Of a DNA stretch of 64,000 bases, positions 3,722 to 43,966 are shown in pieces. The stretch is from an uncultured virus (IMG/VR IMGVR_UViG_3300003629_000002). Lineage: Duplodnaviria > Heunggongvirae > Uroviricota > Caudoviricetes. The position numbers and the translations under genes were made by a program. The stretch lies in IMG/VR virus record IMGVR_UViG_3300003629_000002. One strand, written 5' to 3'. The notes beneath the pieces are model-generated. The model was not told the DNA's origin. It searched no databases and saw nothing but the letters and a program-made list of their open reading frames with translations. Every line of letters starts with the position of its first letter. Within the stretch, counting starts at the first letter, position 1.

Positions 3722-4456
3722 ATGAACGTATGTATGATAGAGTGCCCTACTTGTGGCGAGGAAAAGAAGCATATAGGTAAACATTGGAGATTCTGCACAT
3801 ACCCATCGCTATCTCTTGGAAAAAGAGAATTGATAGAAGGTATGGTTCTTGGAGATGGGTCTGTTCACAATACTCGAACCAATAACTTCTTTACTGCTAA
3901 TATGACAAATAAGAAGTTTTTAGAATGGTTAGATGATAGTCTTGGATTATTTTCAAATGGGGTGAAACTTAAGGCAACTGGTGAAGAACTTGCTGAAAAG
4001 AATAAATCTAATGGACTAATTGATGTTGTAAATCCAGATGAATATAGAGATTCTTATATTCTGCAATCAAAAAGACACCCATACTTCAATGGGCTGAGAA
4101 ATATATATTATAATAATAAAGGAAAACATTTCCCAAATAATTTGAAACTTACGAAGAATATGGCAAAAATGTGGTATGTTTCTGATGGTTCTTTGATGTG
4201 GGGAGATAAATCTGGAAATGCAGGATTAAGAATAGGTGTTCGGTCACAAATGGATAGAGAGGAATACCTAATATCTTTATTTAATAGCATTGGATTCGAT
4301 ATTAAACTTAATGGATGGAATTTACAGATGGGGAATAAAGAAGCAGAAAGATTTCTTGATTTTCTTGGAGAACCTGTACCGGGGTTCGAGTATAAGTGGG
4401 AAAATAAAAATAATATTGAATACGAAAGACTTAAGATAGAGGCGTACCAATACTGA
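3722..4456 (+). mobile_element. Free-standing LAGLIDADG-like homing endonuclease
   Basis: LIEGMVLGDGSV and MWYVSDGS motifs, N-terminal CPTCG..HW..C; AT-rich and basic; paralogue of 11028-11735. Confidence 0.8.
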
Positions 4457-8388: not shown

Positions 8389-9777
8389 ATGAAACTCTAC
8401 GGCGAATACAACGAGGCGACGATTCATACGGAGGCTGAACAGGTTGACGCTTCAGCGATGGAGCAGATTTCCGAAATGGTCAATCATCCCGCGTTCGAGG
8501 GAGACTCGGACGTGTCGATTATGCCTGACTTTCATTGGGGCGCAGGTGCAGTAATCGGATTTACGATGCCCGTAAAAGAGCGTGTCGTTCCGAATACCAT
8601 CGGCGTTGACATTGGTTGCGGAATGTTCGCAGTCAATCTTGGCGATATTGAGTTTGACTCACTTGAGTCGCTCGACTCAGCGGTGCGCTCGCGGATTCCG
8701 ACAGGCTTTGATGTCCACTCGCGGAATGACTATCATATGATTAACGATTTCCCGTGGCAAGCCTGCGAGGATAAGTGGCACTCGTTTGCTGAGAGTACCT
8801 CGTTTGCGCTGGAAAATGAAACGCAGTACCCTCGTGAGACGTACTTCGAGAATCTGTGCAAGCGTGTCGGCTACGATATGGGACGCGCAATTAACAGTAT
8901 CGGCACGCTTGGCGGCGGGAATCACTTCATCGAGTTTGGCCGTGATTCGGAGAATCACGTTTGGTGCATCATCCACTCCGGCTCTCGCGGAATCGGTGCA
9001 GAGATTGCTTCCTATTGGCAGGACCGTGCGACTGAAGCGATGAACGAGCGTGCGATGGAGGGAGATATTCCTGACTCTATCGAGCCGTATCTCTCGGATA
9101 ACTGGAAACCGAAGGCTGACAAGATTCGCGCCAACTTTGAGGGAGAGGACATTCAGGAAAAGTTCAATGAATTGTCACAATTCATTCAGTCCACGAAACA
9201 GGATGAACAGAACCGGAACACGGACCTTGACTATCTCGAAGGAGACGAGGCGCACGGATATATTCGGGATATGATATTCGCACAGACCTATGCCAGCGTC
9301 TCTCGAAAGCAGATGGCTATTGCTGTGCTGGATGCTGTGCGTTCCCTGCAAGACGAGCCTGTCCCCGAAGACGAGGCTCCCGCGTGGTGGAAGGACTCCA
9401 TCGAGTCCGTTCATAATTACATCGACTTCGAGGATGCGACCATTCGCAAAGGAGCCTGTCGCGCACACGCCGATGAGCGGCTCGTTGTTCCGCTTAATAT
9501 GAAGTACGGCACTCTGCTTTGTAAAGGCAAAGGACGCGCTGACTGGAACAATTCAAGCGCACACGGCGCTGGTCGTGCAATGAGCCGGACTGCGGCTCAC
9601 GACAAGTTCACCGACGACGACTTCGAGGAACAGACTGAAGGAGTCTATATGTCGAAGAAACCGATGGACGAAATTCCGGGTGCATATAAGGATGCGTCCT
9701 CCATCGAGTCAGCCTTGGGTGAATCTGTCGAGGTAATCGACCGTGTGATTCCGTTCCTCTCAATCAAGGCGGAGTAA
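8389..9777 (+). CDS. rtcB: RNA-splicing/repair ligase RtcB
   Basis: MPDFHWG, GVDIGCG, GTLGGGNHF, HSGSRG, HN, RKGA, SSAHGAGRAMSR, DEIPGAYK. Confidence 0.97.
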   Translation: MKLYGEYNEATIHTEAEQVDASAMEQISEMVNHPAFEGDSDVSIMPDFHWGAGAVIGFTMPVKERVVPNTIGVDIGCGMFAVNLGDIEFDSLESLDSAVRSRIPTGFDVHSRNDYHMINDFPWQACEDKWHSFAESTSFALENETQYPRETYFENLCKRVGYDMGRAINSIGTLGGGNHFIEFGRDSENHVWCIIHSGSRGIGAEIASYWQDRATEAMNERAMEGDIPDSIEPYLSDNWKPKADKIRANFEGEDIQEKFNELSQFIQSTKQDEQNRNTDLDYLEGDEAHGYIRDMIFAQTYASVSRKQMAIAVLDAVRSLQDEPVPEDEAPAWWKDSIESVHNYIDFEDATIRKGACRAHADERLVVPLNMKYGTLLCKGKGRADWNNSSAHGAGRAMSRTAAHDKFTDDDFEEQTEGVYMSKKPMDEIPGAYKDASSIESALGESVEVIDRVIPFLSIKAE

Positions 9778-11027: not shown

Positions 11028-11735
11028 ATGTATAATTCTTGCGATTCGTATAATACCTGTAAGTCCTGTGGTAAGGATTTTAAGAAGATTTCTTTACATT
11101 GGGCAAGTTCTGATTGTAGGTATCCTAAATTGGATAAAGATACAGAGAGTGTTATTAAGGGGTTGCTTGCAGGTGATGCAACTATAGGCAAGGATGGAAG
11201 ATTATCTGTATATACAACTAATCCAATTTTTGCAGAATTTATATACAGACAGTTAATATCTATAGTTCCAGTAACAGTAAGTATTAGAGATGCAGATAGT
11301 AATGAATTAATGAAAAGAGAACTTTTTGAATTAACATTGCCTAAACATAAGTTTACTAAGAAATTAAGGGATGATTGGTATAATCCAAAGAAAATACCTA
11401 AGAATACGGTTGTGGATAAATTATTTACTAAGTATTGGTATGTTTGTGATGGAAATTTAAATAGTAAATATGAGGCATCTATCACAACATCTTCCAAAAA
11501 TATTGAATTTGTAGAAAAATCATTTAATCAATTGCCATTTGAGTATAAAATTAAAAATATCGGCACAACTGAGTTAAGTAATAATGATAGATACAGAATA
11601 TATATTAGTAGTCGGGAAAATGTTGAGAAATTTCTGAATTACCTCGGGGAACCTGTACCCGGATTTGAATACAAGTGGGAAATAGACGGTAATAAGAGAA
11701 AATCTATGAAGCAAGATGTGTACCAAAAGATTTAA
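11028..11735 (+). mobile_element. Free-standing LAGLIDADG-like homing endonuclease
   Basis: VIKGLLAGDAT and YWYVCDGN motifs; LGEPVPGFEYKWE shared with 3722-4456; AT-rich. Confidence 0.8.
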
Positions 11736-14936: not shown

Positions 14937-15614
14937 ATGGGACTACTTAATAAATTCATTCGAGTGGTGAAGGCGAAGGCGAACAACTTACTCAATAACG
15001 CGGAAGACCCTATCGAGCAACTGGAACTCGCATATGACGAGTTGGAGGACAAGCGCGACAATGTTCGTTCCTCGATTGTGGACGTTATCGCGCAACGAAA
15101 GCGCCTTGAGAGCAGGGTGTCGAAGTTGCAAGATGAAGTGCAGGAGCATAATCGACAGTCTCGCGCTCTTGTCAACGAGGACGAGGACGACCTTGCACGA
15201 GTAGAGTTAGAGAAGAAGAAATCGAAGATGAAGGCAATCGAGAAACTTCAGGGTCAGATTACGCAACTTGACGACCTTGAGCAAGATATGCGCGACCAAC
15301 ACGACGAAATCGAGAGCCGCCTCGATGAACTTGAGACTGAGAAGGAAGTCCTCAAGGCTCGGTACGAGGGCGCTGAAGCGATTGAGGCAGTCAACGAGAG
15401 CCTCTCTGAAGGCATTGGTGACTTCTCAATTGAGGATGCGGTGTCGGATGTTCGGGAAGACGTAGAACAAATGGAGGCTCGTGCAGAGGCTATTCAGGAA
15501 TTTGACGATAGCCAGCAGTCTCACGAGGACCGTGTTGAGGAGATTGCGACTGATGCCGAGGTTGAATCGGAGTTGGAGAGCCTGCGAGGTGAGGCGGAGG
15601 CTGAGGTCGCGTGA
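14937..15614 (+). CDS. pspA: PspA/IM30 family protein
   Basis: MGLLNKFIRVVKAKANNLLNNAEDP, coiled coil, EDDLAR, EVESELESLR. Confidence 0.9.
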   Translation: MGLLNKFIRVVKAKANNLLNNAEDPIEQLELAYDELEDKRDNVRSSIVDVIAQRKRLESRVSKLQDEVQEHNRQSRALVNEDEDDLARVELEKKKSKMKAIEKLQGQITQLDDLEQDMRDQHDEIESRLDELETEKEVLKARYEGAEAIEAVNESLSEGIGDFSIEDAVSDVREDVEQMEARAEAIQEFDDSQQSHEDRVEEIATDAEVESELESLRGEAEAEVA

Positions 15615-15888: not shown

Positions 15889-16710
15889 ATGGGAATTAAC
15901 TTCAACGACACGAAAGAGACAGTCGCAGAACGAACCGAGAAGGACAACTATGAGGGAGGAACGGCCTATGAGCCTGACTCGCCCGAGGTTGCGCTGACGA
16001 AGAACGTCCTGACGAATCTGCTTGAAGACTCGTTCTACGAGTCGGCAGAGGACTCGATGGATGCCGTCAAGCGTGAGTTCGAACGAGTTGCAGACTCTAA
16101 TCCAGAGTTTGTCCTGAAGTTGGCTACGTATGCGCGACAGTCTGAGAATCTTCGGCAAGTCCCTCAACTGTTGCTCGTACTCGCGGCCAACGACGCTCGG
16201 ACGAAGGGATACGTTCGTAGTTACGCTGAGTCGATTATTCAGCGTGCAGATGAACCCCTCGAAGTTCTTGCGATGCAGGTTTCCCTGTACGGCAAGTCCA
16301 TCCCGAATCCGCTTGAGAAAGGTATCGAGGATGCACTTCATAATTTCAACGAGTATCAATTCGCAAAGTGGGACCGTCCTTCGAGAGAATGGCAGTACCG
16401 CGACTTGCTGAACTTAGTCCACCCGCGTCCTCGGGATGATGAGAGAGATGCAATCTTTGAGCAAATTGCTCTCGGAGAACTGGACTCTCATCCCGATGTA
16501 GATTCGCTCAAGCAGTCCGATACGTGGGAGGATGAAATGTCTGATGCCGGTAAAGAGGACCGGGATAAGGCAGAGGTTTGGCGCGAACAACTCCGCGAAA
16601 ATGATGAAGGCTACTCGATGCCTATCTTTGCACGGGTTCGTAACGTTCGAAATATGCTTGATGAAGGACTCTCCGGTGAGGAAATCTTCAATTACGATAT
16701 TGAAGAATGA
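15889..16710 (+). CDS. Ro60/TROVE-domain protein, N-terminal part
   Basis: NYEGGTAY, DSFYES, KLATYAR, IQRADEP, FNEYQFAKW, DLLNLVHPRP, TWE, ARVRNVRN. Confidence 0.9.
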   Translation: MGINFNDTKETVAERTEKDNYEGGTAYEPDSPEVALTKNVLTNLLEDSFYESAEDSMDAVKREFERVADSNPEFVLKLATYARQSENLRQVPQLLLVLAANDARTKGYVRSYAESIIQRADEPLEVLAMQVSLYGKSIPNPLEKGIEDALHNFNEYQFAKWDRPSREWQYRDLLNLVHPRPRDDERDAIFEQIALGELDSHPDVDSLKQSDTWEDEMSDAGKEDRDKAEVWREQLRENDEGYSMPIFARVRNVRNMLDEGLSGEEIFNYDIEE

Positions 16711-17411
16711 GCAATTATATTTCAGATAAAGAATTAATTGATGATATAAGGTTAGTTTCATCTGAAATGGGAGAAGTTCCTTCAAGACGCCAGTATAATG
16801 AGCGCGGAAATTATTCTTATAACACGCATTGTCGGAGGTTCGGCTCTTGGAATAGTGCGCTTGAAAAGTCCGTTGGCTCCATAAATAAATATCAGAATAT
16901 TTCTGAAGAAGAATTATATAGCGAAATAGATAGATTATACGAAGAATTAGGCCGACCGCCAATGCAAGAAGATATGAAAAGAATTGGCGAATATAGTCCT
17001 GATACATACCACTATAACTTAGATGGGTGGAGTCAAGCAGTTATAGATGCAGGATATGAACCTATTACAAGAGGTTTTAAAAGTGGAAAGGAGCATCCTG
17101 ATTGGAAAGGTGGCTCTATTGACTATTATGGGCCTAATTGGAGTTCGGTTAGAAAAGAGATTCTTGAAAGGGATAGCAATTGTTGCAGGATATGCTCAGA
17201 ATCAGAGGAGCGACTTTGCGTCCATCATATTAATCCGCGCTCAGAATTTGTTAAAGATGGTGAATACAATTACGAAAAAGCAAACAAGAAGGAAAATCTT
17301 ATAACGCTGTGTGATTCTTGCCATATGAAGTTTGAGGGAAAATTCGCTAACAGTAGCCATACGGAGTTCGAGAATGAAGCGAAAGATTTAAGTAGTACCA
17401 AAACGAAATAA
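16707..17411 (+). mobile_element. HNH homing endonuclease with two N-terminal HNH-associated repeats, inserted in the Ro60 gene
   Basis: RRFGSWNSAL repeat, WKGG, LERD..CRIC, VHHI, NLITLCDSCH; AT-rich. Confidence 0.9.
17380..17395 (+). promoter_or_regulatory. Viral promoter embedded in the HNH 3' end, upstream of the Ro60 C-terminal half
   Basis: cgaaagatttaagtag at leaderless spacing from ATG 17417. Confidence 0.7.
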
Positions 17412-17416
17412 GTAAT

Positions 17417-18157
17417 ATGAAAGATAACAATATTTTCGGAGATACGTCCGAACGAGTTGTACGAAATAGTGGCCTATATCCTTTTAGATATTATCAGGCT
17501 TATAAGGCTATTAAAGAATCACCTGATACACCAAATGATAAGAGGGTATTAGAATGGCTCGAAAACGCAATGCGCGTTGCAACAGAGAATCTGCCGGACG
17601 TATTCGAGAATACGTTTACAGCAGTTGACGTGTCTGGTTCGATGCGTCACGCTGTCTCCGGTGATTCGGAACTCACTTGCAAGGAGATTGCCACGCTGTT
17701 CGGTGCGATGATGCTTGAGCGCGACTCGGATGTAGGCGTGTTTGCAAGCAACTTCGCTGAGGTAAACGCTGACCCGCGCAATCCACTTGTCACCAATGCG
17801 GAGAAGTTACAAGGTTCGCGTGTCGGCGGCTCGACGAATGGCTGGAAGGTGCTTCGTGGGCTGAGAAAAGAGAACCGCTCTTACGACAGGGTGGTAGTCT
17901 TCACGGATATGCAACTCTGGAACGACTCTCCGTACCAGAACTCCTCGTTCAAGGACGAGTGGGATGCCTACAAGCAACAGAATCCTGATGCAAGCCTATA
18001 TCTGATTGACCTTCAGCATTATGGCGACCTCGTTACGCCAGAGGGGGCGCAGGATGTATATAATATCTCCGGCTGGTCTGAGAAGGTTCTCGACTTCATC
18101 GAGGCCATTGAGAATGTCGATGGGATGATTCAAGAGATTGAATCGGTAGAGCCGTAA
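17417..18157 (+). CDS. Ro60/TROVE protein C-terminal part with vWA domain
   Basis: SGLYPFRYYQAY, AVDVSGSM (MIDAS), GGSTNG, VVVFTDMQ, ISGWSEKV. Confidence 0.9.
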   Translation: MKDNNIFGDTSERVVRNSGLYPFRYYQAYKAIKESPDTPNDKRVLEWLENAMRVATENLPDVFENTFTAVDVSGSMRHAVSGDSELTCKEIATLFGAMMLERDSDVGVFASNFAEVNADPRNPLVTNAEKLQGSRVGGSTNGWKVLRGLRKENRSYDRVVVFTDMQLWNDSPYQNSSFKDEWDAYKQQNPDASLYLIDLQHYGDLVTPEGAQDVYNISGWSEKVLDFIEAIENVDGMIQEIESVEP

Positions 18158-27051: not shown

Positions 27052-30000
27052 TCATAGTTCAGACTCCACGTAGTTCTCAGCGTCTTCGAGGAACTGCTCG
27101 ATGTCTTCCTCGGTCCATTCCGCATCGTCGTCCATCTCGATAAGAATCTCACGAGCCGCCTCCTGCTTCTTATCAAGATTATTGTCAACACGAGTCGTCA
27201 GCACTTGCTCATCACGAGAGCCGTCGCGGTAGAACGTCAGACCCTTAATCGTTTGGCCGAGTTCGTCTTCGTCAAGCGCGAGCATAAAGGCTTCGTGAAC
27301 GTCGTTCCGGGTTGCGTCATTCGGCGCATTGATTGTCTTACTGATACCGGAATCAACGAACTCCTGAAACGCTCTTTGCATCATCCCGTGTTCGCGTGAC
27401 GAGAGGTCGTTCGTTGTTACGAAGACCTTTGCAATATTTTCGGGAATATCGAGGTCGTCAACTCCGTCGAACTCGTTGTTTCGCATCTTTGTTTCAGCAT
27501 CTTCCTTGATGCTCTCCACATCGAGTCCGTTCGCCTCAAGCGTCTTGAGGAAGTAGTCGTCAAATTCGACGAGCATATCGCTTCCCTGAATGTCGTCTCC
27601 GACGTTCTTGAAGTTTGCGACGTTGTACGCAGGTTCACAACCGCCGGTCGTGTTACCAATCATTGAAGTTGTCCCGGTCGGAGCGATTGTCGTCGTATTG
27701 TGATTGCGAATCGGGAAGCCATCTTCCCAATCGTCAGCACTTTCGTAAGTATGCCCCTCGAACCACTCACGGTACTTCTGCGGGTCGGCGTACTTCGACT
27801 CGTCCCAGTAGTCGAACGAGCCGCGCTCTTGAGCGAGTTCGTGACTCATCTGGACAGACTCCTTATCAATGAAGCCCATCACGACACGGGCCGCCTGATA
27901 CGAGTTATCGCTTCCATACGGGATTCCCATCTGGTAGAGCATCTGCGCCCATCCCATAATCCCGAGGCCAATCTTTCGCTGACCCTTCACGCGCTCTGAG
28001 ATTTGTTCAAGCGGGAACTCGCTTTGGGTTACAACGTTATCGAGGAACCGAGTGCCGTGTCGGGTAATCATCTGCAACTGCTCCCAATCAACGTTCTCCT
28101 CGCAGTAGTCCGTTACTGCGTTCTTCTCGAACTGATAATCGTAATCGACAGTTTTCTTCCATTCCTCGAACGGAATAGAATCCGACTTCATCATCAGGCT
28201 CAGATTAACGTGCCCGAGGTTGCACGCCTCGAACGCGGAGAGCGGCTGTTCGGCGCATCCACGATTGACATAGCCTTCAGTAACCCACGTATCTGAACCA
28301 GAACAGTAGAGGTCAAAGACAGTTTCTTTTTCCTCAAGAACCTCAATAGATTCGACAGTTGCTTTCCACAGACCGCCGGTTAGCATAAAGTCAGTTCGTA
28401 GCGTTTCAAGACGTTCGCCTTTACTTGTGTGGTAATTTGACAGTCGAGTGTTTCGAACAAATGTGTCAGCAGACTCGCCAGCGATGTGAATATTGTAGAG
28501 AGTGTACGTCTCATCATTACCAATTTCACTTCCATCACCCCGAGTTCCGCCACGATTCTTTCTCTTGTCTTCGTAAATCCGAGCGTGCATACCCACATTG
28601 AGGGCAAGATTTCGGATGTTGTTAGCCAACTTTTCCGAAGACGTAGACCAGCGAATCTGAGGCCGGTTAGAAGACATACTAACACTACCATCAGTAGCCA
28701 ACATACCGTCAAGGAACCCTTGGACTCCCGCCCGAGTCTTAAATTCAGTCACATCCACACTTTTTTCGTAACTGTATTCGGGGTTGAGATTGTGGTCTTC
28801 AATGACTTTCTCTGCGTCTGCAATCCAAAGCTTGACCGACTTGTTTCGACCGCTGGTATCAAGCTCTCCGACATTGTAACCAGCATCCTCAAACAGTTCT
28901 CGGACGTTCTGATTGAATGTGGTATCATCTTCACTCGAACTAATTGAAAGTCGATTGTTCACATCAATTGTCTTCTGTGTGTATCCCCCATCTCCGGTGA
29001 GGATACCACGTCGGAGTTGATACTTGTAATCTTCTTCAGTCCCTTTACTCTCAAGCGTTGATGGTTCAAGTCGAATCTTATCACCCTCAGAAATATCTCG
29101 GAGAGGAGTGTTTTTATCCACACTCTTTTTCCCGTCAAGAACGTGGAAGCGATGGTCTTCTGTCGCCTTAACACTACCACCATCACTTAGATTGACTTGA
29201 TAGACCTCTTTATCCTCAAAGGTTAGAATCTCATCAACAGATTCGGTTCCATAAACAGTTGAAATTTTATTTCCTTCGCTAACGTTTTCGGCACGAATTA
29301 GTCCGTTAGGAGTGTTAACGAGCGTGTCGCCCGTGACGCACGGATTGGTCGCATTGATTGCATGTTGCGGGTACTCGTCTGCGTCGAAGGAATGCTTGCG
29401 GTTCGTCTCGTCGTAGTGGAACAGACCCGGCTCACCATTGCGCCACGCTCCGTCGATAATGAGGTCCCAAATGAAGCGAGCGGGAAGCGTCATTTCTTCG
29501 CCAACCTCAAGACTGAAGCGAGACTGGTCCCACTTTTCTGCGAGCGGAATCTTCTCGTCGGTGTCGTAATCAGGGTGTGCGACGATGGTATCAGCGTAGT
29601 CTCGCCACAGGTTCTCGTCTACAAGTTCCATCCCAACCTTATCCTCAGCATTCGCCTGCTGGAAGTCTTTCGGGTTGTCAGCGTACTCGGGAGAGTAGAA
29701 CTTCTTCGTTTCTTCGAGAACTGCCTGCGGCTCCGAGAAGTCGGACTGCGGGTCGTAGATTGCGTAGTCTTCGTCGTTGCGAACAGCCTCGATAAATTCA
29801 TCCGTGAGAGCGACAGAGATATTGAAGTTATCGAGGACACCCTCGACACGTTTTGCTGTAATGAATCGACCAATGTCGGCGTGGTCAATTCGCATAATAC
29901 CCATCTGTGCCCCTCGTCGCTTTCCTCCCTGCTTCACCGTTTCGCACGTCTCGTCGTAGAGACGCATAAACTGCATTGGACCGCTGGTTTCAGATTCGGT

Positions 30001-30483
30001 TGACCGAATGTACGCTCCCTTTGGCCGAAGATGACTGAAACTGTAGCCAACTCCGCCGCCACTCTTGAAAATCTGACCAGCGTGCTTCACCGTATCGAGA
30101 ATGGACTCTCGACCAAACTCGTCTTCCTCTGCCATCGAATCGCCCGGCTCAAGGACGAAGCAGGCCGAGAGTTGCTGAAGGCTCGCTCCTGCGTTCATTA
30201 GAGTCGGGCTGTTCGGCATAAACTGAAGCGTACTCATCATATGCTCGAACTCGTCGGCCCACATCTCCTGAGCCACTTCATCGCTTTCCGCACCAGCGAC
30301 GTTCTCTGCGACTCGATTGAATAGGTCTTCCGGGTCCTCACCTTCGAGGAGATACCGTGCTGGAAGAATATTGTGATATGCGTTTCCAGTCATTCGTTCC
30401 TTGACCGATTCAGTCTCGTCTACCGAGAGAATCGGCATCTCTACTTCTACTTCTTTCTCTGATGCTTGTGTTTGTTGAGTCAT
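27052..30483 (-). CDS. nrdJ: Adenosylcobalamin-dependent (class II) ribonucleotide reductase with intein
   Basis: PNSPTLMNAG, LSACFV, GGGVG, QGGKRRGA, NP/CAEQ, CNLG, TIAPTGT, ISKTIN, KGLTFYRDGSR. Confidence 0.95.
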   Translation of the reverse strand: MTQQTQASEKEVEVEMPILSVDETESVKERMTGNAYHNILPARYLLEGEDPEDLFNRVAENVAGAESDEVAQEMWADEFEHMMSTLQFMPNSPTLMNAGASLQQLSACFVLEPGDSMAEEDEFGRESILDTVKHAGQIFKSGGGVGYSFSHLRPKGAYIRSTESETSGPMQFMRLYDETCETVKQGGKRRGAQMGIMRIDHADIGRFITAKRVEGVLDNFNISVALTDEFIEAVRNDEDYAIYDPQSDFSEPQAVLEETKKFYSPEYADNPKDFQQANAEDKVGMELVDENLWRDYADTIVAHPDYDTDEKIPLAEKWDQSRFSLEVGEEMTLPARFIWDLIIDGAWRNGEPGLFHYDETNRKHSFDADEYPQHAINATNPCVTGDTLVNTPNGLIRAENVSEGNKISTVYGTESVDEILTFEDKEVYQVNLSDGGSVKATEDHRFHVLDGKKSVDKNTPLRDISEGDKIRLEPSTLESKGTEEDYKYQLRRGILTGDGGYTQKTIDVNNRLSISSSEDDTTFNQNVRELFEDAGYNVGELDTSGRNKSVKLWIADAEKVIEDHNLNPEYSYEKSVDVTEFKTRAGVQGFLDGMLATDGSVSMSSNRPQIRWSTSSEKLANNIRNLALNVGMHARIYEDKRKNRGGTRGDGSEIGNDETYTLYNIHIAGESADTFVRNTRLSNYHTSKGERLETLRTDFMLTGGLWKATVESIEVLEEKETVFDLYCSGSDTWVTEGYVNRGCAEQPLSAFEACNLGHVNLSLMMKSDSIPFEEWKKTVDYDYQFEKNAVTDYCEENVDWEQLQMITRHGTRFLDNVVTQSEFPLEQISERVKGQRKIGLGIMGWAQMLYQMGIPYGSDNSYQAARVVMGFIDKESVQMSHELAQERGSFDYWDESKYADPQKYREWFEGHTYESADDWEDGFPIRNHNTTTIAPTGTTSMIGNTTGGCEPAYNVANFKNVGDDIQGSDMLVEFDDYFLKTLEANGLDVESIKEDAETKMRNNEFDGVDDLDIPENIAKVFVTTNDLSSREHGMMQRAFQEFVDSGISKTINAPNDATRNDVHEAFMLALDEDELGQTIKGLTFYRDGSRDEQVLTTRVDNNLDKKQEAAREILIEMDDDAEWTEEDIEQFLEDAENYVESEL
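28258..29340 (-). mobile_element. 361-aa intein with LAGLIDADG endonuclease and atypical C-terminus (…YVNRG/C)
   Basis: Starts CVTGDT after ATNP; block B ATEDHRF; GILTGDG and FLDGMLATDG; VFDL; extein resumes CAEQPL. Confidence 0.9.
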
Positions 30484-30587
30484 TGTTATGTCACCGTCAA
30501 ATGCGAGAGCCATCCCTATGTGAATTACGATTCTCGCATCCAACTTCGGGATATTAGTGTATGCGTTCCGGGTACTTAAGCCTTTCG

Positions 30588-32016: not shown

Positions 32017-32722
32017 CTCCTCCTCTCTTTGGTTGAGGGGATAACGCCGCCGAGTGGCGTGAATGCAAGTTCTCGGTAAATTGCGCGTCCATTTGCAAGA
32101 ATGGGCGGAAAGTAAGTTAAGGCTCGGTTTACATCGAGAGATGGTGTAGTCTTCGCTAACCACGAGGGCGGTATTAGCCAAGTACCGTATCGCAGACGGC
32201 TGGTGTCTGGCACAAAGACTTGGGACCTACAATGATACAGAAGGGAGATAAATCAGAAATGGCTGTCGCAAATGCGTTTACCCAATTTGGGACCGCAGTT
32301 TCGAAGCCGCTATCTGACAACCTCCCGTATGACTTCATTGTAGATTATAATGGCCTTCACAGAGTTCAGGTCAAAACTGCGCGGGAGCGTAGTGATAATA
32401 AGAACTCTATTATCGCAGACCTCACACGAAGCAGGCATAACTACTCTACTGGTCACAGTAAAGAGTATTATAGTGATGATGAGATTGACTTCTTCGCTAT
32501 TTATTGGCCGAAACGTGGGGAGGTATACTTGTTCGACTTTGACGAAGTTGGCAAGAACGCTGTAACTATTTGCGTAGGCGATGTTTATAACCCCAACCAG
32601 CAACGTGTTGGCGAGGATTATCTCCTTGAAGTACGGTTGGATTCATTAACACAGTCGTAAAAGGTCCGTCCCAACACTACGGGCGTAGTTTGACAGACTA
32701 CTGGTGGGCTGGTCTTCCACAC
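32017..32722 (+). ncRNA. Unknown multi-hairpin RNA (about 250 nt without insert) interrupted by an endonuclease-bearing putative intron
   Basis: Consecutive hairpins flank the ORF; pairing across it (GGACCT/AGGTCC, TGGTG/CACTA). Confidence 0.55.
32232..32660 (+). mobile_element. PD-(D/E)XK endonuclease (I-Ssp6803I / PDDEXK_5-like)
   Basis: KGDKSE, P....PYDFIVD, RVQVKT, Y...EIDFFAIY. Confidence 0.9.
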
Positions 32723-34340: not shown

Positions 34341-35144
34341 ATGGCACGCCTGAAATCATTCCCGTACTTTGGCGGGAAATATACACACGCTTCTTCGATA
34401 GAGAAACTTCTTCCGTATGATGAAAAATATGTAGAGCCGTTTGGCGGTTCTGCTGATGTGCTACTGCAACGAGAACCGTCGCCGGTAGAGACGTACAACG
34501 ATTTGGACGAGGACGTTGTAACATTCTTCAAAGTGCTACGCTCGTGCCCGAACGAGTTAATACGGCAATTAAAATTGACGCCATATTCTCGGACAGAGTT
34601 CGAGCGTGCTATTTCTGAACCGACTCCCGCCTCGGAGATAGAGCAAGCGCGACAATTCTTTATTTCAATTACGCAGTCGTATAATGCGAAGTCGTCAGAG
34701 AAGTCGTCCGGCGATTGGTCGTATGCGATTTCGACAACTGCACGCGGGCGCTCAAGCGAGATTTCTTCATTGCAGGGATACGAGATTGTATTGTCAGATG
34801 TTGCCGAACGCTTTAAGAGGGTTCAGATAGAATGCCGTGACGCGATTGACGTGATAGAGACACACGATTCGAGCGATACAGTTATCTATTGCGACCCGCC
34901 GTATCCAGCAGGAACGAGGCGTAGTGGCTCGTACAAGCACGAGTACGACGAGTCAGACCACATTGAACTGCTGGAAGTATTGAACAATTGCGATGGGCAG
35001 GTTGCAATCTCCTCCTATGCGAGCGACCTCTACAACGATGCACTTGATTCGTGGAACGTGTATACACTCCGTGCAAAGCCACTCCCGTCATCCGAGAAGC
35101 AGACATTGGACGAGGAAGTCGTGTATACAAATTATAACACGTAG
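34341..35144 (+). CDS. DNA adenine methyltransferase (Dam/D12 class)
   Basis: FPYFGGK, YVEPFGGS, YNDLD, YCDPPY. Confidence 0.93.
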   Translation: MARLKSFPYFGGKYTHASSIEKLLPYDEKYVEPFGGSADVLLQREPSPVETYNDLDEDVVTFFKVLRSCPNELIRQLKLTPYSRTEFERAISEPTPASEIEQARQFFISITQSYNAKSSEKSSGDWSYAISTTARGRSSEISSLQGYEIVLSDVAERFKRVQIECRDAIDVIETHDSSDTVIYCDPPYPAGTRRSGSYKHEYDESDHIELLEVLNNCDGQVAISSYASDLYNDALDSWNVYTLRAKPLPSSEKQTLDEEVVYTNYNT

Positions 35145-35253
35145 AAATCGAAAGATTTAAGTAGGGGGAGTTCCTATAGGTAATACGGTCGAAGAAGACC
35201 AAAGTATTCCGCCGTGCGCGATTTCAAAAAGGGGATTCTTTTCCCTTTATCGT

Positions 35254-35737
35254 GTCGTGGTAGTTCAATTAGTAGAACGCCGTGCTGTTAAGGACATATG
35301 AACACAAAAGACAAAGGTGATTTGGCTGAAGTATCCGTTGTAAAACGGGTAAAGGAGTTAGGTTATACGGTATCAATTCCATTCGGTGATAATGCACCAT
35401 ATGACCTGATATACGATGATGGCCAATTACACAAAGTCCAAGTGAAATATGGTAGACTATCTGAAGGAAAAGTTAAAGCAAAACTTGAGCGGACACAAAG
35501 AAATCAAGGAAGACACGCTCATAAACCGTATGATTCGTCTGAAGTTGACGAATTTGCAATTTATTGTCCGGGGACAGATGAAGTTTACCGTATATCAGTA
35601 ACAGATGGCCAAAGACGGAAGTCTATCTTCGTGTTGAGGAAGCGAAGAAGGCTGATTCAAGTATACGTTGGGCATCTGAATATCGTTTATAGTCCGCAGA
35701 TACACGGAGGTTGGAGGTGCAAGTCCTTCCCGCGACG
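35254..35737 (+). tRNA. tRNA-Asn(GTT) with a 411-nt BHB intron (35291-35701) at position 37/38
   Basis: Exons 35254-35290 and 35702-35737 join into a cloverleaf; strict BHB motif. Confidence 0.92.
35298..35692 (+). pseudogene. Intron-encoded PD-(D/E)XK endonuclease with an apparent -1 frameshift near 35608
   Basis: KGDLAE, PFGDNAPYDLI, KVQVK, VDEFAIYCP; the -1 frame continues PKTEVYLRVEEAKKADSSIRWASEYRL* and stops at the intron stem. Confidence 0.85.
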
Positions 35738-35800
35738 TTCTTTTGCACAATTTTCTTTATCGAAAGATTTATATAGTATAAACACATACACTAATATACG

Positions 35801-35875
35801 CTCAGGATAGCGCAATTTGGTTGACGCACTCGCCTGTAGAGCGAGGCTATGCAAGTTCAAATCTTGCTCCTGAGA
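35801..35875 (+). tRNA. tRNA-Tyr(GTA)
   Basis: CTCGC-CTGTAGA-GCGAG; archaeal C1:G72. Confidence 0.9.
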
Positions 35876-35975
35876 TATTCGCTCGGGACAGGCGCGAGAT
35901 TAAATAATTGCCCCAAAGCAGTTACCCTTACGAGAGTTCAACCCTTCCTGTAGGAAGTTCCGTTGCTCTCCCAAT

Positions 35976-36051
35976 GGGCTGATGGCGAAACTTGGCTTAA
36001 CGCACCGCGCTCTTGACGCGACATATACGGGTTCAAATCCTGTTCAGCCCA
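35976..36051 (+). tRNA. tRNA-Lys(CTT), G37
   Basis: CCGCG-CTCTTGA-CGCGA. Confidence 0.75.
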
Positions 36052-39101: not shown

Positions 39102-39235
39102 GCGTCCGTGGCCCAATCAGGTACGGCACTCCGCTGATAAAAGAGATAATCAGATGAATATCCCAATATTAATTCGGCATCTGAGTATCACTTGCAGTAA
39201 CGGAGCGATTGTTGGTTCAAATCCAACCGGGCGCA
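39102..39235 (+). tRNA. tRNA-Ile(GAT) with a 60-nt intron (39140-39199) at position 37/38
   Basis: CTCCG-CTGATA|...|A-CGGAG; BHB with one A.G mismatch. Confidence 0.88.
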
Positions 39236-43391: not shown

Positions 43392-43966
43392 GATTATTAT
43401 TTACGAAGCAACGAGTGCGACACGAGCGAGTCGTCTTTGCTGTGAGTTGTTCCAACTGCGACTATTATGTTGCGCTGGTCCTCGATGAAAAGGATGGCGT
43501 CTATCGAGGAACGCCAAATGAAGCCTTTCTCGAAGGGCTGATGCGAATGATGGCGATGGACAATTGTGATTGCACGAGTTCAGATAGATGGGAGCGTCCG
43601 TTCAGATGAAGGAACCAGACTGGTGCAATATGGGATACGGCGTCAACTGCTACGAGGCAAAATGTAAGTATTGCGAAGAAACTGCAAGGCTCGCGTTTGG
43701 CGATAACGAGAAAGAACTGCTCACGATAAAGTGTCAAGACGAACTGGGTAGAAAGCAGATGGAACTGTGCGAATTTGTGTTCCATTTTGTCCTCATTAAG
43801 TTGCGACGGGAGTGTAATTGTGATATAAATCGAAAGGTTTAAATAGGAGTAGTTCTTATAGGTATAATACGGAAGATGGCTGGTGGTCCAATGGGTTCAA
43901 CTCCCTTCCAGCCAACTACGATGAGAAGACCTGAGACGACACTCATCTAAACAAATGCCGCTCTGC

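Follow-up and report, generated by a model that had tools for sequence, protein, structure and literature searches.

A probable bulge-helix-bulge intron encoding a PD-(D/E)XK endonuclease in the tRNA-Asn gene of an uncultured haloarchaeal virus

The intron carrying the I-Ssp6803I gene in the tRNA-fMet gene of cyanobacteria is a self-splicing group I ribozyme, and endonucleases of the same family (PF11645) have been described in a bacterial group I tRNA intron. Archaeal introns of the bulge-helix-bulge (BHB) type that hold endonuclease genes have been reported in rRNA genes (PMC6125680, PMC3984707 and PMC4496867). These introns, of the I-DmoI, I-PorI and I-ApeI type, encode LAGLIDADG enzymes; they home at the DNA level and are removed from RNA by the tRNA-splicing enzymes of the cell. 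Two other related systems are the short BHB introns of about 30-100 nt, devoid of any open reading frame (ORF), in tRNA genes of haloarchaea and in tRNA-Ala(TGC) of Halogranum tailed virus 1 (HGTV-1; the short intron is mentioned in PMC13532342), and the free-standing PF11645 genes located beside uninterrupted tRNA genes in haloarchaea and Hafunaviridae, an example being gp71 of HSTV-4, behind tRNA-Asn. Here, we analysed a stretch of 64,000 nucleotides (the window, to whose 64 kb all window-wide statements refer) of the uncultured virus record IMGVR_UViG_3300003629_000002. The only tRNA-Asn gene found in this window is interrupted by 411 nt which, in our assessment, are probably an enzyme-spliced BHB intron doubling as a mobile element by means of the PF11645 endonuclease it encodes.

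This locus combines features of the four systems. Like the archaeal rRNA introns, it has the design of a protein-spliced BHB intron carrying a homing endonuclease gene, but its host gene is a tRNA, interrupted at position 37/38, its enzyme is a PD-(D/E)XK protein (PF11645) and its carrier a euryarchaeal virus, whereas the others are found with LAGLIDADG enzymes in rRNA genes of crenarchaeal chromosomes. With the I-Ssp6803I intron (protein structure 2OST) it shares the protein family and the location of the gene inside an anticodon-loop intron of a tRNA; in contrast to that intron it has no ribozyme core, only 16 non-coding bases and a BHB suited to a protein enzyme. The short tRNA introns have the same canonical position and the same strict hBHBh' form, and that of HGTV-1, annotated in its record, belongs to the same virus family (by our reading, a strict BHB: CTTGC-TTTG-CAA-GAGT ... 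GCTC-CAAA-TTA-GCAAG); the viral Asn intron differs in being 411 nt long and 96% coding. As for the free-standing genes, they share the family and the association with tRNA genes, in HSTV-4 even the tRNA species, but they lie beside and not inside the tRNA, show only about 32-43% identity and fall outside the clade of the intron-borne gene (SH-aLRT 97). The initial annotation knew of no description of such a combination, and our own literature search, which lay outside most subscription journals, likewise yielded no report of a tRNA gene whose BHB intron bears an endonuclease, nor of any such intron in an archaeal virus. In the review PMC4090602, the terms 'homing' and 'open reading frame' do not occur.

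The viral nature of the DNA, already proposed from its letters, is borne out by synteny with HGTV-1 and by genes for baseplate and tail-fibre proteins and DNA polymerase B. HGTV-1 was the only match retrieved by megablast among 50,697 phage records (82% identity over tRNA-Lys/Met). It matches the window in gene content and order, with ribonucleotide reductase, dUTPase/dCTP deaminase and thymidylate kinase genes followed by a long tRNA cluster. Since the genes are HGTV-1-like and the public runs containing the stretch are labelled hypersaline lake metagenome, the window is from an uncultured haloarchaeal virus that belongs, or is related, to the Halomagnusviridae. ARAGORN in its standard mode detected 32 tRNA genes, none of them a tRNA-Asn. 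When introns were permitted the number rose to 34, the two additions being tRNA-Asn(gtt), interrupted by 411 nt, and tRNA-Ile(gat), whose intron measures 60 nt; no second tRNA-Asn is present among these 34 genes of the cluster.

The tRNA-Asn(GTT) gene lies on the plus strand. Its 5' exon (35254..35290, tRNA nt 1-37) ends with CCGTG-CTGTTA, the intron (35291..35701) starts with A GGAC AT ATG and ends with TAG TCC GCAG AT, and the 3' exon (35702..35737, nt 38-73) starts with A CACGG. The splice sites are fixed independently of the motif, through the exon ends given by ARAGORN and an alignment with the uninterrupted tRNA-Asn of HGTV-1. When joined in silico, the exons form a canonical 73-nt cloverleaf with anticodon GTT, both exons being undamaged. 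In our motif scan, exactly one strict hBHBh' solution exists at this gene. The 5-bp stem CCGTG/CACGG is followed by a central helix of CTGT (35285-35288) and GCAG (35696-35699) with one G-U pair, by the bulges TAA (35289-35291) and ATA (35700-35702), and by an intron helix of GGAC (35292-35295) and GTCC (35692-35695), so that the two halves of the motif cover 35285..35295 and 35692..35702. All 13 pairs are standard or G-U, and the two 3-nt bulges lie on opposite strands with the 4-bp helix between them. The predicted cuts, after 35290 and after 35701, fall behind the second base of each bulge, that is at the canonical position 37/38 of the tRNA. These are the helices, bulges and insertion site of the initial annotation, which had read a viral tRNA-Asn interrupted by a 411-nt BHB intron; ARAGORN, the cloverleaf and the motif scan confirm them.

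Is this motif expected by chance? Over the entire window, 495 strict BHB-type motifs were counted for 124,964 start positions and 1,486 lengths, about 2.7e-6 per fixed pair of sites. Because the sites were fixed by homology and not chosen for the motif, a chance find is not a reasonable explanation at this rate. A simple calculation restricted to the 8 pairs beyond the anticodon stem of the tRNA itself gives a chance of roughly (6/16)^8 = 4e-4. The minimum free energy (MFE) fold of the precursor maintains the acceptor, D, anticodon and T stems, and the intron ends are paired over 11 bp (GGAC.UAUGAAC with GUUUAUAGUCC), at z = -4.9 compared to shuffled sequences. The non-coding part of the intron is limited to 7 nt at the 5' and 9 nt at the 3' side, which are just the bases that build the BHB; the remaining 395 nt (96%) are the ORF.

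A self-splicing group I or group II intron would be the obvious alternative for an element of this protein family, in view of its type member in the group I intron of cyanobacterial tRNA-fMet and of bacterial relatives which adjoin tRNA genes with group I introns (RF00028, 58.3 bits for locus L030 and 41.7 bits for L026). The initial annotation had named Infernal as the means to look for a group I core in the insert. In a search of positions 35000-36000 with all Rfam families, no RF00028 match appeared at E values up to 10. The only match was to group-II-D1D4-3 (18 bits, E 0.4); it is located within the ORF and is weak, falling far short of the gathering score of 32. Moreover, the 7 + 9 nt of intron outside the ORF leave no room for a core, and we consider self-splicing to have a negligible probability. 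Nor do we give any real credit to an assembly chimera between a tRNA gene and an endonuclease gene. The record is a metagenome assembly and no single contig spans the whole stretch; however, each junction is covered by a Logan contig of its own, the 5' one by X2 record 14 (35178-35372, with 0 differences) and the 3' one by X1 record 6 (a 455-nt contig, 35394-35847), and the two exon halves are perfectly complementary. The runs X1 and X2 may be the source sample of the window record.

The ORF inside the intron belongs clearly to PF11645 (PDDEXK_5). Its N-terminal 103 codons (35298..35606, frame 1, plus strand) include the PD-(D/E)XK-type motif PYDL...VQVK, and frame 1 matches the family at residues 1-105 with E 7.7e-32 (110.6 bits for a cut-off of 26.1); the family profile itself matches the I-Ssp6803I structure (PDB 2OST) with E 2.8e-18. 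With PYDL and VQVK present, the D...(E/Q)xK motif is kept, and D36, Q48 and K50, which we take to be the catalytic residues, are nearly invariant columns of the alignment. After about residue 104, frame 1 no longer resembles the homologues, whereas the translation of frame 3, 27 codons (PKTEVYLRVEEAKKADSSIRWASEYRL) followed by TAG (35609..35692), aligns with the C-termini of the closest ones. This indicates a frameshift in the record near 35607, where one base is missing at 35607..35608 relative to a sister contig. The sister, X1 record 6, differs from the window only by a C inserted behind 35607 and by G>A at 35614; read by hand, it encodes an intact 131-codon gene (...VTD-A-PKTEVYLRV...) whose restored sequence ...VTDAPKTEVYLRVEE... 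agrees with the homologues. Thus, of the I-Ssp6803I-like ORF that had been described as filling the intron, the family and the ATG at 35298, 7 nt into the intron, hold. The stop codon at 35690-35692 does overlap the closing stem, but it can be reached only after the frameshift, the window record having no uninterrupted full-length frame.

The frameshift may reflect variation between strains, or the record may have been misassembled at this point. It also raises the question whether the intron, though spliced by the tRNA-intron endonuclease (EndA), is now a resident and immobile one with a dead endonuclease, its presence or absence reflecting old events or intron loss. In favour of this, 2 contigs have been recorded with a frameshifted product of 170 aa, in addition to the lesion at about 35607. 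Against it, the frame is intact on a contig that differs over its 455 nt by 1 substitution and 1 indel, and the catalytic motif and the full-length likeness to homologues are kept, which together point to a very recent lesion or a sequencing error. We therefore judge an immobile intron unlikely, though it is the alternative to which we give most weight.

The closest homologues of the endonuclease are five proteins from Logan assemblies (P0003-P0007), with 49-65% identity. In one of them, P0004 (63% identical, encoded on a separate contig of 1.5 kb), MNTKDKGD is preceded by the extension MWYGTALLRT. By back-translation, and not from observed DNA, its LLRTM can be encoded by CTG TTA AGG ACA ATG, which would correspond to the Asn anticodon loop followed by the GGAC helix. 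On a 14.7-kb contig of a further run (X4), a match to the start of the endonuclease gene (35296-35331) is preceded by 30 letters resembling a tRNA D-arm and an anticodon stem ending with CTG; the loop reads CTGATA, then TG AAC. Scans of viral-contig proteins gave no homologue of the endonuclease above 47% identity, and a search of IMG/VR for close DNA relatives by the exon pattern returned only HGTV-1 itself and an unrelated tRNA-Gln.

A search of related viruses for alleles without the intron had been proposed with the initial annotation and was productive. At the corresponding place in its cluster (Gly-Gly-Asn-Tyr-Lys-Met), HGTV-1 has a tRNA-Asn(gtt) gene of 73 nt without any interruption; it is colinear with the window exons, with three anticodon-stem pairs changed on both sides. 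Intron-less joints were also detected in the three metagenome runs X1, X2 and X3, where 413-420 nt are skipped, from 35290/35291 to 35705-35712, and the few letters replaced at the joints can be attributed to an anticodon stem whose 3' strand differs; most of these joints are flanked by contig sides of only 26-36 nt, accepted from 85% likeness upwards, so that some are possibly from other organisms. The X3 example, from a food metagenome, is a 1,022-nt contig which includes the tRNA-Gly(gcc) region. It shows 24 differences in 146 positions upstream of tRNA-Asn and 0 in 89 in the promoter region of tRNA-Tyr, with some 460 unmatched letters (by arithmetic) behind tRNA-Asn. Besides the intron, this contig does not have the gene for a D12-class N6-adenine DNA methyltransferase (34341-35144) that is inserted in the window between tRNA-Gly(TCC) and the tRNA-Asn promoter; the same gene is missing from HGTV-1. 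Related genomes therefore show presence and absence of the intron at the same site.

Several observations weigh against our interpretation. No RNA run is listed among the public runs with the stretch, and splicing is unobserved. The T-loop of the tRNA reads TGCAAGT, with G where U55 is expected, as it does identically in HGTV-1. In the MFE fold, UGUU/GAUA with an internal loop is locally favoured over the two-bulge form, which is usual for BHB motifs and yet gives no support. The endonuclease is frameshifted, so this copy may be immobile; its closest homologues were seen as proteins only, leaving no second full copy of the intron with DNA context; and the short sides of most intron-less joints have been mentioned above. 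Finally, tRNA decay does occur in the cluster of this virus, as shown by a dead tRNA-Pro remnant (43876-43917) in which the T arm, the acceptor stem and some of the D arm survive, whereas the whole anticodon arm is missing by comparison with HGTV-1 tRNA-Pro(TGG); no intact tRNA-Pro was found in the window.

Such decay, together with the frameshift and with public runs that include no RNA, would also be expected if an endonuclease cassette had merely disrupted tRNA-Asn, the gene being dead, the BHB coincidental and the tRNA-Asn of the host used instead. However, the insert has 8 extra pairs and two 3-nt bulges exactly at 37/38 (the chance of about 4e-4 calculated above), both exons are undamaged, and its 16 non-coding nucleotides amount to just the bases that build the motif. 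A second case of the same design occurs in tRNA-Ile, in the same habitat. We consider simple disruption very improbable, less so only than self-splicing or a chimera, and retain an enzyme-spliced, mobile BHB intron as the probable nature of the insert.

How could such an intron work? The gene would be transcribed from its own promoter-like motif, TCGAAAGATTTA, at 35148..35159 on the plus strand; the same motif is located before tRNA-Tyr at 35760-35771. The motif TCGAAAGNTTTA occurs at 27 sites in the window (for example at 35148, 35760, 32737 and 43830), whereas 1.95 would be expected. Most of these sites directly precede a tRNA or protein gene, and the motif is also present in HGTV-1 and in a metagenome locus (L005). 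It is probably the B recognition element/TATA promoter of the virus. In the precursor, exon nucleotides 32-35 (CUGU) would pair with GCAG at the 3' end of the intron, and the intron ends would pair as GGAC/GUCC, extended by UAUGAAC/GUUUAUA, to give two 3-nt bulges 4 bp apart. Host EndA would then cleave behind A37 and behind intron base 411. The virus would have to rely on the host for this step, as a scan of 78 window ORFs revealed no EndA domain. According to PMC4090602, euryarchaeal endonucleases of the alpha4 and alpha2 types are strict for a BHB at the canonical position, and this strictness is matched by what the tRNA-Asn intron offers.

The exons would next be joined, and the intron probably circularised, by RtcB of the host or of the virus. 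A virus-encoded RtcB RNA ligase gene is indeed present (8389..9777, plus strand; PF01139, E 9.9e-63), as the initial annotation had anticipated when it proposed the virus's own enzyme as a possible ligase, and it is a candidate for both steps. It is adjoined by Ro60/TROVE and RlaP RNA-repair genes. For HGTV-1, RtcB and RNA ligases have been noted in connection with tRNA introns and repair (PMC8651126).

The excised RNA, with only 7 nt before its AUG, might, more speculatively, be read like the short-leader mRNAs which are usual in haloarchaea. When a relative without the intron infects the same cell, the endonuclease produced would cut that relative's tRNA-Asn gene at the anticodon arm, and repair would copy the intron in, that is, homing. 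Here the design of the motif is of interest. GCAG and the two strands of the outer helix all come from the intron, while the contribution of the exon is only CUGU (C32-U35), to our knowledge fixed in every tRNA-Asn(GUU). As its own sequence provides half of the BHB and CUGU is all it requires, the intron could be received by any tRNA-Asn(GTT) gene without loss of function. The occurrence of an intact copy, on the sister contig, and of frameshifted copies fits the usual cycle of invasion, decay and loss.

The other intron-containing gene of the cluster, tRNA-Ile(GAT) (39102..39235, plus strand; ARAGORN), has a 60-nt intron at 37/38 (39140-39199). Its BHB is relaxed, the central helix CTGA/GCAG including an A-G mismatch. 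The 3' part of this intron, TTCGGCATCTGAGTATC, matches TTGGGCATCTGAATATC, located at positions 377-394 of the Asn intron, at 15 of 17 bases. A match as good was reached by 9 of 1000 shuffles, and GGCATCTGA is found nowhere else in the 64 kb. In the matching frame, the tRNA-Ile intron reads NSASEYHLQ and then TAA across the splice site, to be compared with IRWASEYRL* at the end of the window endonuclease and AEDYILQ at the end of P0006. The 60-nt intron thus looks like the ORF-less remnant of an intron that bore a PF11645 gene, of which the 3' part would be the gene end. That GCAG is kept, although it fits the CUGU of tRNA-Asn better than the CUGA of tRNA-Ile, suggests descent from an Asn-type intron.

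PF11645 genes are associated with tRNA genes well beyond this virus. The window itself contains a second, free-standing one between tRNA-Arg(GCG) and tRNA-Asp(GTC) (32220..32660, plus strand; PF11645, E 6e-22), and the equivalent slot of HGTV-1 holds a LAGLIDADG endonuclease gene. In haloarchaeal chromosomes, the gene was beside a tRNA gene in 38 of the 38 loci examined. Among 41 loci of species-representative genomes, 27 are haloarchaeal as judged by their record titles, and all 27 have tRNA-Asp(GTC) 40-570 nt upstream on the same strand (L086-L122); the 11 fetched loci of a second sample (L158-L168) all have tRNA-Asp, -Pro, -Gly or -Lys just upstream. The haloarchaeal genes are often located between tandem tRNA copies. 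A sample of 401 Halobacteria genomes included 164 with a homologue at E up to 1e-8, the highest identity to P0004 being 43%; in this sample, as in the metagenome and genome scans, only distant homologues were found. Among cultured haloviruses, a PD-(D/E)XK nuclease gene is present in HSTV-4, HRTV-15, HJTV-3 and HRTV-24; that of HSTV-4, the one of the four whose context was checked, starts 2 nt after an intron-less tRNA-Asn(GTT). In HATV-2, the gene lies 197 nt upstream of tRNA-Ala.

In the bacterial loci L026, L040, L111 (2501-3179) and L030 (1581-2282), the end of the PF11645 gene is separated by 3-4 nt from a following tRNA-Asp or tRNA-Asn gene, which is interrupted by an ORF-less group I intron; the RF00028 score is above the gathering score of 50 in L030, and that of L026 (41.7 bits) is below it. 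This arrangement of gene and intron resembles the split endonuclease/intron pairs of phages. In phage contigs, PF11645 genes were also placed inside tRNA introns of 516-641 nt, as predicted by ARAGORN only. The ARAGORN intron calls for L054 and others were spurious, Rfam finding an intact tRNA beside the gene. At L011/L012 (about 2447-2949), a PF11645 gene lies between perfectly complementary tRNA acceptor halves (CCA encoded) with about 36 nt to spare; neither a BHB at the anticodon loop nor a group I core was found there.

A quick IQ-TREE analysis of 92 rows, from which 10 loci were left out because their ORFs were not cleanly extractable, placed the intron-borne gene in a 9-row clade with P0003-P0007, L005 and L016/L021 (SH-aLRT 97). 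At a weak fork (80), this clade is neighbour to the tRNA-Asp clade of haloarchaea (98), and it stands apart from the bacterial clade adjacent to group I introns (99); the second PF11645 gene of the window, on a long branch, has no secure position. L005, despite its membership of the clade, was rejected as a comparable case: its gene is antisense between the halves of a poorly pairing tRNA-like sequence and has promoter-like motifs of its own.

Homing endonuclease genes are unusually abundant in the window, with four families represented (LAGLIDADG, HNH, PD-(D/E)XK and intein-borne). At 15889-18157, a Ro60-like gene is apparently split by an HNH homing endonuclease ORF: an ORF with HNH_repeat domains (16707-17411) lies between one with a TROVE domain (15889-16710) and one with the Ro60 vWA domain (17417-18157). 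The gene for the large subunit of ribonucleotide reductase (27052-30543, minus strand) includes a LAGLIDADG_3 intein, its HGTV-1 homologue being about 380 codons shorter, and two free-standing LAGLIDADG_2 endonuclease ORFs are located at 3722-4456 and 11028-11735. The virus also encodes a PspA/IM30-family protein (14937-15614).

The origin of archaeal tRNA introns and of their placement at 37/38 is an old open question. Endonuclease-driven homing is documented for BHB introns of rRNA genes; for tRNA genes, none was found in the literature searched. The virus described here shows three stages side by side, namely a free-standing PF11645 gene, a full endonuclease-bearing BHB intron, of which intact and frameshifted alleles occur in the population, and an ORF-less remnant in tRNA-Ile. 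This makes a model of invasion, decay and shrinkage directly testable. More generally, and as a tentative proposal to which we give somewhat less than even chances, PF11645 genes may drive BHB introns which move among the anticodon loops of tRNA genes in haloarchaeal viruses, possibly also in their hosts, and then lose the ORF to leave short introns of ordinary appearance; the intron of tRNA-Ile(GAT) would be such a relic, derived from an Asn-adapted intron. If this is true, the passage of a tRNA-Asn-linked gene from the free-standing state, seen in HSTV-4, into an intron would illustrate the origin of canonical 37/38 tRNA introns.

On our reading of the tRNA-Asn intron, a single endonuclease family makes use of two unrelated splicing systems, in bacteria a ribozyme and in archaea an enzyme of the host. 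Its presence on both a group I ribozyme and a BHB bears on the proposal, summarised in PMC6125680, that BHB introns replaced group I introns. With homologues in 164 of the 401 Halobacteria genomes, the data also point to PF11645 as a general family targeting tRNA genes. Taken together, the findings suggest how archaeal tRNA introns can spread, and then shrink.

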